Both the position numbers and the translations under genes were made by a program. From the UHGV virus genome UHGV-0266262: a DNA stretch of 27,435 nt; one strand, given 5' to 3'. How positions within the stretch are numbered: position 1 is the first letter of the stretch; the number at the start of each line of letters is the position of its first letter. The DNA comes from a virus. Below the pieces are notes generated by a model. The model saw only the letters and a list, made by a program, of their open reading frames with translations. It did not search any database and was not told the origin of the DNA. Positions 230-22,700 of the stretch are shown here, piece after piece.

Positions 230-2728
230 TTATAATTTGCATTCATTGTCAAAAAGTTTTTTTTCAATCGCTGCAAGACGTGACTCTATTTTTTCGATTC
301 TTCTACGCAAATAAGCAGACTCAAGCCATAAGCACTGGTCAGCACGGATACCCCACCTATTTCCGGCCTTGCGTACCAGAGTTCGCTCTTCTGTTTCGTA
401 TTCTTCTTCCTTCTCAATTTCGACACCATCCACAACTTCAGTAATCGTCCTGACCGCCATCACTGGCTCGTATTTATCATCCCATTCATCGTAACAGAGA
501 AGGCCAAACCGGGTCCCATCAATCCCATGAGCGAGGAAAGCATCTCGCACCTGTTGTGCTATGACACCAAAATGCCAGCGGGCACCATCTCCCTTTTCCC
601 TGATAGCCTCAAGCCAGCGAAAAGCTACGATCCTGATATCTCCCCATGCATCCAAAATTGCATCACCTTCATAACCAGGGGACATATTCAGACTGAGTTC
701 ACTCGTTGTTAGCGGGTCGCTTTTTTCCCTACCATCTGAGGTGTTTATTGAGCCTGAAACAGCATAAATCTGAGTTGGCCTGTTATCTGGTACACCAACA
801 CTGTAAGAATTATCCAGATAAGGATGCCAGTGACCATTTGGACTTACTTTCCATCTCCAGACATTATTACTTCCTAGATGTAAATCAGCCCCATTCGCAG
901 CCATTAATGCTACATTAGAGGTACTCATATACATCTGAAAATAACCAACGCCTTTTCTCTGCCATTCATAAAGCAAACCGGTTCCTTGCTCGTTGTTGAA
1001 CTTTAGTGCTTTTATAGGTGAGTTTTGTTCCCAGGTTGTATTATCTGAATAAATTACATGAGGAACCGCCTCTGGATTATCAGAGATACATATTTCTTTA
1101 GATGGTAGAGATAGCGTTCTTTTATCTCCTGCACCAAGCGCATAAATCAGAATGGTACGTCTGGTTGCCCCCATAACATCAGAATGTTCAGATACTATTG
1201 TTACCGATGGATAAAGAACGCCATCGTAATCAACAAAATGCATCCCTTCTGACTCGCGGAAGGTAGGGGTAGAGCCAATAATTCTAGGTAAATCCGTATC
1301 ACCCAAATTAGAAATGGCTTTCTGCACATCATTCCCCAACAGATCACAACTTGATAAATATTGAGTCTGCCCAAACTTAGTATTTCCACAATACATATAC
1401 AGATGTGCTCCATCAGAACAAAATCCATTAAGTGATGTTGTTTCATCACCACCGACTTGTGAAAGTTGAAGAGTAAACTCATGAGTACACAGGGCGGAAT
1501 AATCACCGGGTTTATCAAAAATATCAGTGGAAAATACACGAAACGTTTGCTTATTGTATTCGCCATTGTCGGTGAAACGGATAATCATCCATTTTCCGTC
1601 TAATGTAATAGTCGGAGTAGTTGAACTACCCGCTGTACGATTTCCTTCTACAACCCTAAACATTTCAGGAGAATCTATTTCCCCCTCGGAGTTGCTCCTC
1701 CAGGAAAATCTAACAACCCCATGTGAACCACCTACAGAAAAATCAAAGTCAGTATGGGCAGTAGAGCCTGCCGGTGTATCTGGTGCTGTAGTCCATAACT
1801 TAATCGTATTATCTATATTCTGTACCGCTATTCCCTGATGACCCAGCCTGTCCTCAGGAAGCATAAAATCAGAAGATGTATTTTTAATTTTTGAATCAGC
1901 AGAATATTTATTCCAGACAGAAACAGTAGTAGGGTTTCCATCTATTTCTGTATTGTGATTGGAATAATAAGCTCTGCTTACAGGATCATATGCAAAAGTT
2001 TGCAATGTTCTTATCTGTCCGCGACCATTAGCAATTGGTATAAACCGTATAGCGGCATTAGACTCATGTCCAATGGCATTAATGTCCCATGCAGGTCGCT
2101 TGCTTGTAACTAGTTCACCATTAACAGGAATGACTTTCCCTCCAACCAACCATTTCCCGTTAATATAGGTATTCCTGAAAAACGTTCTGGAGGTAAAATA
2201 AGTTTTACCTCGCATATCAACAACCATAGACGTAACATAATCTTCCAGTTGTTCAAATGCCTGTGTATCATCCGCAATGCCATCACCTTTTGCTCCCCAG
2301 CCACGTGGATCTGTTTCATCACGCCATCGTGCAATCTGCAATTCGGAATATTTTTTAGCACCATCCGGGTCTTCTAATTGCTGCCGTAGCTGATCCGGGT
2401 CATACTTCAGTACGTTAGGAAAATAGAACTGCTGCGCTCCATACGCATCATAAACAGCCATAGAATGACCTTGCACAGTTACGAACTTGGAAATCTGTCC
2501 GTTGTATACCGGGTATCCAGCAGCATTGATAACGATTGGCTGTGGCACCTGAACATAAGTACCATCTTCTCGTTCCAGATATACTGGAATCTGGTTTTCT
2601 GGATTTAGCGGATCTGTGTCAATCTTACCGATATAAATTTTTCCATTTGCTACGGTTTTAAAAGAACTAGCCATTGTGAAGAGTTGCGACGGCATACCTA
2701 TCACAACATTTGGAGTTATATTAGGCAT
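230..2728 (-). CDS. Tailspike protein: P22-like N-terminal head-binding domain, divergent central receptor-binding domain, C-terminal intramolecular chaperone (peptidase S74-like) domain
   Basis: ORF 230..2821; first ~120 aa after MPNITPNVV closely resemble my recollection of the P22/Sf6 tailspike N-terminus ([22 protein letters not shown] ... [13 protein letters not shown] ... NVLKYDPDQ). C-terminal ~160 aa carries the S74 chaperone pattern (FRW ... HFGVIAQQV ... YDEW ... [21 protein letters not shown]) preceded by TSDGREK (Ser..Lys spacing). Start set at ATG 2728 (AGGA 9 nt upstream); ATG 2737 or 2821 are possible alternatives. Confidence 0.85.
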
Positions 2729-3068
2729 ATTAGTCATCCTGTTTGAAGATTTAGATATTGAAGAAAACGGAATGACTGCAGACAAAGATGCAATTGTTTT
2801 GAAAAATAACCTTCTATTCATTTAAAAACCATGCAACATGAACAAAACGATTATTTTACAATACTCAAGAATCTTGATCAACAGGCATATTATTTATGCG
2901 CTTAATGCGTCACTTACAAAAATAAAAACAAGTACTACCTTTATTCCTATCGTCCATGATTTTTATTTTCAAACATTATTAAATAACAATTCCTATTTAT
3001 AATATCTGTCATTTAATTTGCTCCAAATACAAGGAATCGCCGCAGTGATTCATTATCAATCAAAAAAT

Positions 3069-3085
3069 ACGACCACCGTGGTATT
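3069..3085. promoter_or_regulatory. Candidate Mnt operator (ACCAC-c-GTGGT palindrome) in the mnt / tailspike divergent control region
   Basis: Palindrome ACCACcGTGGT at 3072-3082, about 65 bp upstream of the mnt start, in a 326-bp AT-rich intergenic region. Resembles the CCACGGTGG core I recall for the P22 mnt operator (recollection, not verified). Confidence 0.4.
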
Positions 3086-3147
3086 ATTGAGGATGCAACC
3101 AGCAGATAATAAGATGCCGATCCACTCACAAGAGCGAGGCATCAAGA

Positions 3148-3399
3148 ATGGGAAGAGATGACCCGCAATTTAATCTGCGGCTACCTTACGAATTAAAGGA
3201 AAAACTAAAACAGCGAGCCAAATCCAATGGCTGCTCTCTTAATTCAGAATTAGTTCAGATAGTGACTGATGCTGTATCAAGGCCATCCAAAATTTCAGGC
3301 TATCGAGACGATGCAGAACGCATCGCTGATGAGCAGTCCGAACTTGTTAAGAAGATGGTGTTTGATACGCTGAAGGATTTGTACAAAAAAACCACCTGA
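3148..3399 (+). CDS. mnt: Mnt repressor (ribbon-helix-helix, Arc/Mnt family)
   Basis: 83 aa; near-identical over the C-terminal half to P22 Mnt as I recall it (GYRDDAERIADEQSELVKKMVFDTLKDLYKKTT) and similar at the N-terminus (MGRDDPQFNLRLPYELKEKLKQRA). GAGG 8 nt upstream of ATG. Confidence 0.9.
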   Translation: MGRDDPQFNLRLPYELKEKLKQRAKSNGCSLNSELVQIVTDAVSRPSKISGYRDDAERIADEQSELVKKMVFDTLKDLYKKTT

Positions 3400-3498
3400 C
3401 GGTGGGTTAATTTTTGCATTTACTTGGGCCATATTGACTACTTATAAAATGAGATCAATATTTAATCGCCCAATAACGGGTGTATGTTGAGGTATATC

Positions 3499-3678
3499 AT
3501 GGCGAAAAAACCAGGTGAAAACACAGGAAAAAACGGCGGAATATACCAAGAAGTTGGCCCACGCGGCGGTAAGAAAGACAATTTTGCCACCGTCAAGGAC
3601 AACGAAAGGCTTCCACCAACAACAAAGCCAGGTCATGTCTGGGTATTGGATAAGCGAACTCCAGACAGCAAAAAGTAA
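3499..3678 (+). CDS. Small conserved hypothetical protein (59 aa), YjzC-like motif; possibly the counterpart of the small ORF between sieA and mnt in P22
   Basis: ATG 3499 with GAGGT 6 nt upstream. Sequence MAKKPGENTGKNGGIYQEVGPRGGKKDNFATVKDNERLPPTTKPGHVWVL has the KPGE..G.Y.E.GP.G pattern of the YjzC-like small-protein family (recollection). Confidence 0.6.
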   Translation: MAKKPGENTGKNGGIYQEVGPRGGKKDNFATVKDNERLPPTTKPGHVWVLDKRTPDSKK

Positions 3679-3683
3679 TAATC

Positions 3684-3705
3684 AAGCCGGTCACTCCGGC
3701 TTTTT
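3684..3705 (+). terminator. Rho-independent terminator for the mnt / 59-aa transcript (possibly bidirectional)
   Basis: AGCCGG-tcact-CCGGCT stem-loop followed by TTTTT on the plus strand; overlaps the last codons of the convergent minus-strand gene. Confidence 0.55.
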
Positions 3706-4056
3706 GATATGTCGCTCGCAGAACTCAACAAGCCTGCTCATTAAGTAGCAGTAAGTCTCGTTGGCTCTTCCTGGTTCAACATCAACACCTACCCTTGAGC
3801 AGATATCGAATGCCATGTGAGCGCACTCATGGGCAATAGTAGATAGTTTGCCATTGAACACGCCTATCACATGCAAAACACCATTCTCGCTACTCATTGT
3901 ATGAGACGCTCCGTTGGCGTCCGAGTCATGCACGTCAACGCCAAGTTTTTGATGCAGGCGTTGCCATTCTGGAAAGTCTCTACAAAACACAATTGTACCG
4001 CTCTCAAAGAGCGGAACGAGCATCTTTGGTACGTTTCCAATGTTAACTTTTTTCAT
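3691..4056 (-). CDS. Hypothetical protein with HExxH motif (possible small zinc metallopeptidase-like protein)
   Basis: 121-aa ORF; motif [14 protein letters not shown] 5 nt upstream of ATG 4056. No family assignment possible from memory. Confidence 0.5.
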
Positions 4057-4086: not shown

Positions 4087-4581
4087 GTGTCTGATTCTAT
4101 GAGTTACGCTGTGCTAGTTGCCGCAACTCTATTTCTGGGGATAGGGTTGCAGATTGCGTGGTTCTTTTTTTCTAGTTTTATTAAACGTAAAAGAATTGAA
4201 TCAAGGATATCTGAGATTTCTATTGCTATAGGGAAAAATGCTGAAAATCCAGAGAATGAGGCCTGCGCACTGAATTACCTTAAAGAAAAGTTTTCCCCTG
4301 AAAAATTTGAAAACAGAATTACTGATGCTCTTGGATTGGTAATATCAGTAATTCATATGCCACTAAGTTTGCTGATAACAGTGTGGTACTTCGCCATGAT
4401 CGCCGGAAGAATATTTGGTTTCATGAATATAGAGCCTGTAGTTCTTTGGGTTCCAATGATACTGCAATTGTTGTTAAGCTTTGCTATCTTTATTTTTTCT
4501 GTTTTTATAAAAATTGTCTTCGGAAGATACCCCGGAGAAGCGAAGGGATTTAATAAAGAATTCATAAAAACTATAAAATAA
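4087..4581 (+). CDS. AT-rich polytopic inner-membrane protein; candidate superinfection-exclusion protein by position (P22 sieA locus)
   Basis: Three predicted TM helices ([76 protein letters not shown]). Strong SD AAGGAGG 4075-4081 with GTG 4087 (ATG 4099 alternative). Markedly lower GC than flanking genes; opposite strand to the late operon. Confidence 0.55.
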
Positions 4582-4603: not shown

Positions 4604-6445
4604 CTACTGCCGGGTAGCTTCGTTAACTAAGAGCGGGCGCACGGCAGTAGCCGCCTGATTTAGCGCTCTTTCATAAGCTGGCGTTCCAGCTTTAGTGTTT
4701 GCCAGACGTAAGAGCGCATTCCTTGCTGCTTTGGATTCATACAAGCGCATCATTGCACCGAAACCAGCCTCAAGCCCCATTGATACGCCAAGAGTCGTAG
4801 TTGCGCCAATCGTCCTTATCCTGTTGGCTTGCGATTGCCCCGTCTGAGTTACTACATTTGCGGTGTCTGATCTTGCTGTTTGCTGTAGAACTTCATGAAG
4901 AGCATCAAGTTCTTTCATGTGCTTTCCAGAAAAAATAGTGTTGTAAATTTCACCGCCTGACTGAGATTTCAGCTTATTAACTTCCGTGATGAACTTGGCT
5001 GGAGAGTCACCGGCCTTTTCCGCTATTTTGCTGACGTAAGCTGCACGCATAGCATCTTTCCCTTTATCATCCAATGCGCTCCAGATTCGTTTCACGTCAG
5101 ATGGTTTTCTGCTTAATACAACAGTATTTATAAGTTCAGGACTGGCTTCACTGCTTGCCTTGTTGAGCTTGTTAGCAATGTTTTTATTAAGCACCTTATT
5201 ATAAACGTTTGCATAATCGGAATTTGCTTTAAGGTATTTTGCTGCGTCTGATGCACCGAGGTTTTTTGCAACTGCGTTACGAAGGTCTTTTGACATTGCA
5301 TTCTCTACCATATTGGTAGCTGCTTTTGCCTGGTTGGGGAAGACCATAGCATCCCCCTGAACATTAGATCTAAATGCTGTTCTGTGCTGACGTAGGAGAT
5401 CAAACGTAACATCCAAATCAGTTGCAGGGTTTGCTAATTCTTCACGTAGGTTACGCAAGGATGTAAGCAGGCTTTGATTGGCAGACGTCCCAAGCCGTTC
5501 CTGTCTTGCGATCGCTGTATTCAGAGCATTCATGGTATTTGTGGTATCAACTGCGGCATTACCCATTTTATTGGTGACGTCATTGATAACAGCGCCAGCG
5601 GCCTCCTTCCGTCCCCTTAACGTGGTGGTCAGAGATTTCACCACATCATCAGGGTTGTACTCACCAAAACGGTCAAAATAATTGCTTACCAGCTTACTAC
5701 GCGTTGCATATTGCTCCGCTCGCTTTGAGCCTGTCCCGAGCAAAGCCCCCTCAGCATCCTGAGTAAGTCCGCGAGTGAAAGCATTTTTCGGCGGGATAAC
5801 ATCAGATGTCATTGGTGTCACGCCCATCGATTCTGAGGTGGCAATTTTTTTCGCTACTTCTGGCGCGATATCGCCTTTTATAGCAGTTATTCCACGCCCT
5901 ATTCCCTTTGCTGCTGCGGAAAGAACACCCTGAGCGGCAAGGTTAACTCCGGCGTTTATGGCTGCATTTTGCGCGAAATCGCCTTTCTGGTTCGCGGCTT
6001 CTGCCAGTGATCCAATAGCCATGCTTCCTGCCGTTCCAACTCCTGGAACTAAATACCCGCCAATTGTTTCTCCAGCTTGAGCGTAGGGGTCTGTCGGTCG
6101 ATCGACTGGACGATAGACATCATCCAAAACCTTGGGGCCACCAAGCCCCTGACTGATTGCATTAATCAGACTTGCGCCGCCCTGTAATACGTCAAATGGT
6201 ATGTTTACCAGACCACGACCAGCCTGTTCTGCAATTTGCCCTGCACTTTGACCACCAGTGAGCCAATCGCCAGCTTGTTGCATCAATGATGGTTCTTCCC
6301 GTGTTGGTGCATTATTGGCCTGATTAACTATTTGTTGCTGAACAGCCTGACCAGCAAAATACTCATCAATGGCGGTGCCAATATCTTCGGTGCTCGTACC
6401 ATCAGGAAAGGTAAATGTCTTACCGTTTGCAGTTACTTTCATCAT
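4604..6445 (-). CDS. Ejection (DNA-transfer) protein, P22 gp16-like
   Basis: 613 aa (P22 gp16 about 609 aa); last of three consecutive ejection-protein genes in P22 gene order; ATGA overlap with the upstream gene. Confidence 0.75.
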
Positions 6446-18859: not shown

Positions 18860-21028
<2,169 letters not shown>

Positions 21029-22544: not shown

Positions 22545-22620
22545 TGGTGCTGGTTAACGGACTTGAACCGCTACCCATTCGCTTACAAGGCGACTGCTCT
22601 ACCATTGGAGCTAAACCAGC
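22545..22620 (-). tRNA. tRNA, 76 nt, CCA encoded; anticodon UGU (Thr) by manual folding
   Basis: Minus strand GCTGGTT-TA-GCTC-CAATGGTA-GAGC-A-GTCGC-CTTGTAA-GCGAA-TGGGT-AGCGG-TTCAAGT-CCGTT-AACCAGC-A-CCA; perfect 7-bp acceptor stem and canonical T-loop. Confidence 0.75.
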
Positions 22621-22625
22621 ATATT

Positions 22626-22700
22626 TGGAGGGGCAGCGTGGACTCGAACCACGATAAGAAGGTTAACGGCCTTCCGTAATGACCTTTATACGACTGACCC
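22626..22700 (-). tRNA. tRNA-like gene, 75 nt, non-canonical (anticodon loop CCGTTAA, apparent GUU, C at position 33; one acceptor-stem mismatch)
   Basis: Perfect T-arm CGTGG-TTCGAGT-CCACG and CCA end; acceptor GGGTCAG/CTGCCCC has one mismatch; 3-bp D-stem. Confidence 0.5.

Follow-up and report, generated by a model that had tools for sequence, protein, structure and literature searches.

An apparent mnt-only remnant of the P22 immI region, with a predicted operator of its own, beside the tailspike gene of a P22-like prophage

The mnt gene and its control region

The 27,435-nt stretch of virus genome UHGV-0266262 that was analysed here (called "the window" below) is the late half of a P22-like prophage, and it carries a homologue of the phage P22 repressor gene mnt, transcribed divergently from the adjacent tailspike gene (the homologue of P22 gene 9). 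The window has mnt between its homologues of P22 genes 16 and 9 and contains neither arc nor ant. This arrangement is already published; an "mnt-only" version of the region has been described for phages ST64T and ST104 (PMC2629481), and the locus is a further example of this well-known, frequent form of P22 immI. The features on which the analysis turns are the following (+ and - give the strand):

3069..3085: putative Mnt operator (Omnt homologue), 17 bp, ACGACCAC-C-GTGGTATT; core 3071-3083, arms 3072-3076 and 3078-3082
3087..3115 (+): Pmnt-like promoter; -35 TTGAGG at 3087-3092, 17-nt spacer, -10 TAAGAT at 3110-3115
3092..3120 (-): degraded remnant of Pant; TCGGCA at the -35 position, TGCATC at the -10 position
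3136..3139 (+): ribosome-binding site GAGG, 8 nt before the mnt ATG, conserved in the upstream sequences compared
3148..3399 (+): mnt, encoding an 83-amino acid (AA) ribbon-helix-helix repressor, with its DNA-binding domain at the N-terminus and a tetramerisation helix at the C-terminus
3392..3405: short GC hairpin overlapping the mnt stop codon, terminator-like on both strands

The protein is identical to P22 Mnt at 62 of 83 positions (75%). Its residues 3–50 match the ribbon-helix-helix family Arc (Pfam PF03869, 7.8e-20) and residues 53–80 match the tetramerisation helix of Repressor_Mnt (PF11423, 2.3e-18); the N-terminal domain also matches the structure PDB 1mnt (7.5e-33), and the C-terminal helix is identical to that of PDB 1qey at 28 of 31 residues. 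P22 Arc has the same fold and an identical recognition strand (PQFNLR), but it is only 53 AAs long, lacks the Mnt C-terminal tetramerisation domain (PF11423, PDB 1qey) and has a differently organised operator, whereas the window protein has both this domain and a Mnt-type palindrome. An earlier note on this DNA, made from the sequence alone, had called the C-terminal half nearly identical to that of P22 Mnt, and this is borne out: the last 23 residues (61–83) are all identical. DNA identity to P22 is 53–77% over nucleotides 1–150 of mnt and jumps to 93–100% over nucleotides 181–360, into the start of the downstream gene orf59a, so the similarity ends at a real mosaic boundary. This boundary (window 3298-3507 compared with P22) lies inside mnt near codons 50–60, at the junction between the DNA-binding and tetramerisation domains, and the operator, promoter and DNA-binding domain appear, from the comparison with P22, to have been exchanged as one unit. 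A different irregularity is found in the P22-type loci L070, L071, L073 and L075, where a truncated N-terminal fragment of mnt precedes a full mnt gene that has no operator directly upstream of it.

The putative operator contains the palindrome ACCAC-C-GTGGT (3072-3082), 65 bp before the mnt ATG, where the earlier note had reported it; this is its sole copy in the window. Taken alone such a palindrome is not statistically striking, and its weight comes from its alignment with the P22 mnt operator and its retention in 43 distinct relatives. When the window is aligned with the annotated immI region of P22, the palindrome coincides with Omnt, and TTGAGG and TAAGAT fall on the -35 and -10 hexamers of Pmnt (TTGAGA-17-TATCAT in P22), with a predicted start near 3122. 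The note had also placed the palindrome inside an AT-rich region, and in this it was mistaken; the AT-rich stretch (25–30% GC) runs from roughly 2750 to 3050, and the palindrome belongs to the adjoining mnt/gene 9 intergenic module, which is 36–41% GC.

The operator comparison set consists of 43 distinct upstream sequences (120 occurrences) from genes whose Mnt strand reads M-x-R-x-D-P-Q-F-N. In these the block GACCAC-N-GTGGTC-TTATTG, which includes the TTG of the -35 hexamer, is nearly invariant, while any of the four bases can occupy the centre of the palindrome and the 5' flank varies from clade to clade, a pattern characteristic of palindromes bound by proteins. The window core (3071-3083) is in register with the 42 other sequences and fits GACCAC-N-GTGGTC at 12 of 13 positions (11 of 12 specified bases, with one arm mismatch). 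Positional homology and the conservation of the palindrome thus predict that a Mnt tetramer binds here. There is one operator in the window, one in phage SE1 and one in phage Gally, and no further operator-like site within two mismatches was found beyond chance in the window or in the complete SE1 and Gally genomes. A half-site-like GATCCAC at 3120-3126, just 3' of the Pmnt -10 hexamer, is kept in nearly all orphan upstream sequences; it might reflect a constraint on the start site or the 5' untranslated region, or a third Mnt contact.

The remaining parts of a complete P22-type immI region are missing from the window. Searches with P22 Arc and Ant (tblastn) match nothing in it except mnt itself, and no antirepressor, KilA-N, Rha or BRO domain was found in the other open reading frames (ORFs) scanned, so the reported absence of arc and ant is confirmed within the window. 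The sar RNA (Rfam RF00262) gives no match there at the gathering score or at an expect value (E) of 1 or less, while the P22 positive control scores 96 bits. The strong promoter Pant, which overlaps Omnt in P22 (TTGACA-17-TATATT, 11 of 12 consensus positions), is degraded; the TGCATC at its -10 position has neither A at position 2 nor T at position 6. Other orphans have TCGGCA at the -35 position (ATGGCA in locus L111) and mostly TGCATC, TGTATC or TATATC at the -10 position, with other variants in L111, L117 and L158, and the P22 -10 hexamer is preserved in none of the orphans compared. The 17-bp operator, on the other side, ends one base before the Pmnt -35 hexamer, close enough for a bound tetramer to be expected to hinder RNA polymerase. 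Because Pant is degraded and there is no second operator copy, the only cis target found is the promoter of mnt (and orf59a), and we infer that Mnt would negatively regulate its own short mnt-orf59a transcript, which would end at the hairpin at 3684-3702.

Specificity classes, distribution and selection

The base-contacting strand residues of P22 Mnt are said to have been identified by Knight and Sauer in 1989 as Arg2, His6, Asn8 and Arg10. The window protein retains the two arginines and the asparagine and has Gln in place of His6 (with Leu9 and Leu11 where P22 has Phe9 and Met11), and its operator differs in step, with arms GACCAC rather than the GTCCAC of P22 and with different flanks; it is therefore assigned to a different specificity class and is not a Mnt of P22 specificity, and its palindrome is the predicted operator of that class. 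In the class of the window the core GACCAC-N-GTGGTC is paired with the recognition strand R-x-D-P-Q-F-N-L-R, and an RDDPQFNLR strand goes with AGACCAC-N-GTGGTCT even where the C-terminal domains are unrelated (the phage L/ST64T type, L111, L117, L158 and L138). P22-type Mnt proteins, that of Pluralibacter included, pair R-D-D-P-H-F-N-F-R with GGTCCAC-N-GTGGACC; the JEP4/Sf101 type pairs DEAQFHLRL with a TACC-N-AAA-Y-GGTA palindrome, and an Erwinia protein pairs RTDPVFNLR with CCCCAC-C-GTGGGG. The P22, JEP4 and Erwinia types thus each have their own palindrome at the same location, and we infer from these pairings that the His6/Gln6 difference accompanies that between GGT and AGA in the outer arm of the operator. 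More distant alpha- and gammaproteobacterial relatives have a similar, not identical, strand, xR(E/A)DPQ(F/L/M)K(L/I)R, and one to three upstream sites at most one mismatch from the core. In a collection with one genome per species no close relative of the window was found, and the distant relatives there were informative about the recognition code: in Rhizobium, Methylobacterium, Xanthobacteraceae, Stenotrophomonas and Nevskia (L246, L261, L275, L285 and L288) several tandem ACCAC-N-GTGGT palindromes lie upstream of distant ribbon-helix-helix genes, so the ACCAC-N-GTGGT code reaches well beyond the P22-like phages.

In phages ST64T, L, SE1, ST160, the ST-29 group, 720R6 and Gally, mnt is the immediate neighbour of the tailspike gene, and arc and ant are missing. 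The nearest named relatives of the window in mnt and operator are the E. coli phages vB_EcoP-720R6 and Gally, with related prophages (94% DNA identity, Gally Mnt 96% identical); they have the orphan layout, but their palindrome is perfect (AGACCAC-T/A-GTGGTCT), their Mnt has Arg29, the AT-rich insert is missing and other genes lie 3' of mnt. The Salmonella phages SE1, ST160 and the ST-29 group are 87.8% identical to the window in DNA (for SE1, over the intergenic region and mnt), and the "mnt-only" morons of ST64T, ST104, L, SE1 and ST160 share with it the divergent mnt adjacent to gene 9, the absence of arc and ant, the operator class AAGACCAC-N-GTGGTCTT and the Pmnt layout. On the other hand, ST64T and L have a Mnt C-terminal domain unlike that of the window (67.9% identity), and the window differs from the Salmonella phages in its 281-bp AT-rich insert and replaced tailspike N-terminus, in an 11-bp deletion that removes a conserved hairpin, and in the two changes described below. 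For phage L both a "new function" and a "remnant" reading of this arrangement have already been voiced (PMC8022706).

Among 5,426 complete E. coli genomes 244 (about 4%) match the mnt region, the closest at 97.4%. Both arc and ant are missing from all 64 IMG/VR loci with a Mnt 88% or more identical to that of the window, and the tailspike head-binding domain lies 136–159 bp upstream in them, or 412–420 bp where the insert is present; by comparison, all 16 P22-type loci in the same search carry both arc and ant. Orphans are far commoner in IMG/VR (about 44 sampled 15-mer sites and the 64 close Mnt relatives) than complete modules of the same class (seven contigs). A second class, that of phage JEP4 (L003, 3370-3385; L217, L219, L222; L302 onward), behaves likewise, with mnt and tailspike but no ant at 105 of 120 sampled IMG/VR sites. 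JEP4 groups here with the Sf101/IME10 type and also has an orphan mnt beside its tailspike gene, but its Mnt is only 49% identical to that of the window, with the strand ..DEAQFHLRL.. and the palindrome TACCGAAACGGTA at the same position. One locus (L320, 7333-10743) has a full mnt-arc-ant cassette followed by an extra JEP4-type orphan mnt with its operator directly beside the tailspike gene, so the two kinds of module can coexist. Of 120 global matches to AGACCACNGTGGTCT, about 70 have no nearby homologue of mnt, arc, ant or tailspike and were set aside as seemingly due to chance in a very large collection.

The orphan mnt and its operator are under purifying selection across the clade. The ratio of nonsynonymous to synonymous divergence (dN/dS) in the DNA-binding domain is 0.04–0.17 between orphan lineages wherever dS can be estimated, and the corresponding ratio for segregating variants (pN/pS) is 0.36 in the E. 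coli type and 0.15 in the Salmonella type. In the window, however, both partners have changed. Its Mnt has NGCSLNSE in place of the conserved turn NGRSxNSE at the start of helix B, and this Cys29 (R29C) replaces an Arg present in nine other aligned homologues and in all other loci translated (the conserved Arg28 in the comparison with P22); the outermost core position of the right operator arm carries a lineage-specific C-to-A change at 3083 (GTGGTA instead of GTGGTC). In the sample, the two changes are confined to the window and to seven loci that were found because their Mnt protein matches that of the window exactly; these loci are identical to it throughout mnt and 150 bp upstream. Two further loci (L063 and L068), with tailspike N-terminal domains 97% identical to that of the window, have the nonsense change R53* in mnt, and L063 has an operator mutation besides. 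Since both partners are altered, the predicted autoregulatory loop is probably weakened in the lineage of the window.

The tailspike side of the locus and the neighbouring genes

On its minus strand the window carries, in order, the nin region, the Q antiterminator gene, and genes for lysis, terminase, portal, scaffold, coat, ejection proteins and tailspike. Around mnt the order is tailspike (-), mnt (+), orf59a (+), a 121-AA gene (-), sieA (+) and gp16 (-):

230..2728 (-): tailspike gene; the product has a head-binding domain of the P22 type and a Peptidase_S74 chaperone domain
2729..3009: AT-rich insert, 281 bp, separating the former start of gene 9 from the current tailspike start
3010..3024 (-): vestigial P22-type gene 9 start; ribosome-binding site GGAGC at 3020-3024, ATG at 3012-3010
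3499..3678 (+): orf59a homologue, 59 AAs, 97% identical to P22 Orf59a
3684..3702: terminator-like hairpin directly 3' of orf59a, at the position of the t-mnt annotation in the P22 record
3691..4056 (-): 121-AA gene, phrog_1365
4087..4581 (+): sieA-like superinfection-exclusion gene, which completes the "ant moron" between genes 16 and 9
4604..6445 (-): gp16 homologue

The block of small genes between gp16 and the tailspike gene is the region named the "ant moron" by Villafane et al. (PMC2629481). The locus shares with P22 immI its position between gene 16/sieA and gene 9, the register of operator and Pmnt, and the highly similar 3' half of mnt and orf59a, and orf59a is probably co-transcribed with mnt. 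Phage SE1 has the same order of tailspike, mnt, orf59a homologue, 121-AA gene and gp16 homologue (no sieA is annotated there), and the 121-codon gene in the equivalent position of SE1 suggests that the window gene and SE1 gp64 are homologous.

The tailspike gene most likely starts at 2728, at Met32 of an 863-AA ORF, and not at 2821, because gene callers give a protein of 832 AAs and the Head_binding domain begins at residue 32; the palindrome is then about 350 bp from the tailspike start. The functional start lies 419 bp from the mnt ATG, a distance due to the 281-bp insert, and only the vestigial start falls within the spacing of about 135–148 bp that marks the ST64T/L/SE1 type of mnt-only moron. 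This vestigial start reads ATGACAGATAT after GGAGC, in a layout identical to that of P22, SE1 and 720R6; it opens a 21-codon ORF (2947-3012, minus strand), MTDIINRNCYLIMFENKNHGR*, in which homology to gene 9 ends after codon 4. Among cultured phages the insert and the tailspike 5' end are common to JEP4 only (98.8–99.6% identity), and a comparable spacing of 412–420 bp is found in JEP4 and at nine IMG/VR loci. As the old gene 9 start persists, its homology stops, and the insert with the 5' end matches JEP4, the comparison identifies the spacer as a scar of replacement of the tailspike module and not a part of the regulatory module. An Rfam search of the insert at E ≤ 1 gave only a meaningless microRNA match, and a promoter-like TTGATC-17-TAAAAT within it (2881-2853, minus strand) was rejected as being within chance (2 found, 3.8 expected).

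Most orphan loci have a hairpin with a 7-bp stem and a 3-nt loop between the operator and the gene 9 ribosome-binding site (L001, 2084-2102; L004, 1941-1959). As a rule it folds more stably on the late-mRNA strand, with the help of G-U pairs, and its pairing is kept through differing sequences across lineages; in the window (near 3040-3045) and in the L007 group it has been lost by the 11-bp deletion.

Elsewhere in the window an element resembling the insertion sequence IS21 lies in pieces at 18946-20747 (+), as a 340-AA istA-like ORF, a 95-AA fragment and a 147-AA istB-like ORF with matches to DnaC-like helicase loaders. Since the small terminase gene lies on one side of these pieces and the lysis genes on the other, the element may interrupt the late operon, and the prophage may be defective. 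Two tRNA genes (22548-22700, minus strand) separate the lysis genes from the gene for the Q-like antiterminator.

Possible roles of the orphan module

We think it probable that the locus is an "mnt-only" remnant of a P22-type immI region that persists as an autoregulatory orphan module with its own operator, and that it is possibly weakening in the lineage of the window. An ancestral mnt-Omnt/Pant/Pmnt-arc-sar-ant cassette would have lost arc, sar and ant, with mnt left divergent from the tailspike gene; a Mnt tetramer on the operator beside the Pmnt -35 hexamer would set its own level by negative autoregulation, the divergent promoter that Mnt once repressed would be dead, and the benefit that keeps the module in the clade would most plausibly be exerted in trans. 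The earlier note's alternative of a decaying immI remnant that still autoregulates agrees with the anatomy, in which the operator abuts Pmnt; decay is at odds with the purifying selection seen across the clade, and fits only the window lineage, with its R29C and operator arm changes and its relatives with nonsense mutations.

Several considerations weigh against the autoregulatory reading. In P22 the stimulation of Pmnt by Mnt is attributed to the removal of competition from Pant; with Pant gone, Mnt binding might not affect Pmnt, and it would take more than autoregulation to account for the conservation of the operator. Binding of Mnt to the palindrome and the direction of regulation are predictions from sequence, and for this prophage the operator scans covered the window, which is its late half. 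Purifying selection shows that the module is useful and not what it is for. Finally, the exact Cys29 protein occurs in 247 blocks of the protein collection, so R29C may be tolerated rather than damaging.

Tentatively, the benefit could be immunity in trans, in which the orphan Mnt would silence the antirepressor operon of superinfecting phages with the same operator and so guard the prophage from Ant-mediated induction; this is compatible with the autoregulatory reading and would supply its selective benefit. It is established genetics that in P22 the Mnt of a lysogen represses ant of an incoming phage. Suitable targets exist: L085, L138 and L149 (seven contigs in IMG/VR) have complete mnt-arc-ant modules in which the operator is identical (AGACCACCGTGGTCT), Pant is intact (TTGACA) and the strand reads ARDDPQFNLR, and L149 is an ES18/SPN3UB-like enteric siphovirus. 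They are rare, however, with 7 contigs to set against more than 100 orphan loci. The L149 segment with mnt, operator and arc has no match in the 5,426 E. coli genomes, and the cultured phages of E. coli and Salmonella yielded no complete module of this class. Three candidates for such a module were rejected; UPF_BP1 proved to be P22-type, N7 combines a Gln6 Mnt with another operator, and SPN3UB has an unrelated ribbon-helix-helix protein and operator. Selection on an orphan mnt with a single cis site is what a target in trans would lead one to expect, but a purely trans role needs no conserved operator of its own.

We are doubtful that mnt and its operator in the window lineage are already non-functional leftovers awaiting deletion. 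The Arg lost at position 29, present in every other homologue examined, aligns with Arg31 of Arc, which we take to be part of a buried salt bridge, and the operator arm mutation is unique in the sample. The two R53* loci, one of them also operator-mutated, and the fragmented IS21-like genes of the late region point the same way, and the ant moron has been called a region in rapid flux (PMC2629481). Yet the mnt ORF, its ribosome-binding site and its promoter hexamers are intact, the exact Cys29 allele is widespread, the operator change affects only the outermost core position of one arm, and in the clade as a whole dN/dS is about 0.1 and the operator almost invariant.

It seems unlikely that a broader proposal holds, by which the orphan mnt-operator cassettes would be selectively maintained "immunity-only" modules, in at least two classes beside the tailspike gene, that silence incoming antirepressor operons or gate tailspike transcription, with the C-to-A change adding a Mnt-controlled leftward -10 hexamer here. 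The earlier note had suggested that Mnt was rewired to control the tailspike gene or some other target, and the degraded Pant hexamers, the lack of a second operator in the window, SE1 and Gally, the 281-bp insert and the place of the tailspike gene in the late operon all speak against this. In its specific form, in which Mnt would sit between mnt and gene 9 and either govern a leftward promoter or keep late or stray transcription from reading through into the tailspike gene, the idea draws on the constant distance of about 65 bp between orphan operator and gene 9 start in two independent specificity classes, on the extra orphan mnt beside the tailspike gene of L320 in addition to its full immI, and on the C3083A change, which turns AATAAG on the minus strand into AATAAT, a -10-like hexamer overlapping the operator. 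Villafane et al. also state that in P22 tailspike levels are influenced by the moron, possibly with the participation of Mnt and Arc (PMC2629481, citing Adams et al. 1985). We nevertheless consider such gating highly improbable: the best leftward match is 8 of 12 with a poor -35 hexamer (TTATTA), no better than nearby chance matches, the Pant hexamers are degraded in every orphan, about 350 bp separate the operator from the tailspike start in the window, and the tailspike gene is co-oriented with the virion genes and directly downstream of them. Antiterminated late transcription, moreover, is not normally stopped by a bound repressor.

To the arrangement already known, the analysis adds the pairing of operator class with recognition strand, the abutment of the operator on Pmnt beside a degraded Pant, its single copy, the purifying selection, and the two lesions of the window lineage. 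No target of an orphan Mnt beyond its own promoter is visible, and a small question in the biology of P22 is thereby sharpened: orphan mnt genes are common, under purifying selection and accompanied by a cognate operator once per phage genome, a pattern that argues for a function. The strand and operator pairs (His6 with GGTCCAC, Gln6 with AGACCAC, AQFH with TACCGAAACGGTA and Val6 with CCCCAC) are also a ready-made set for studies of DNA recognition by β-sheets.

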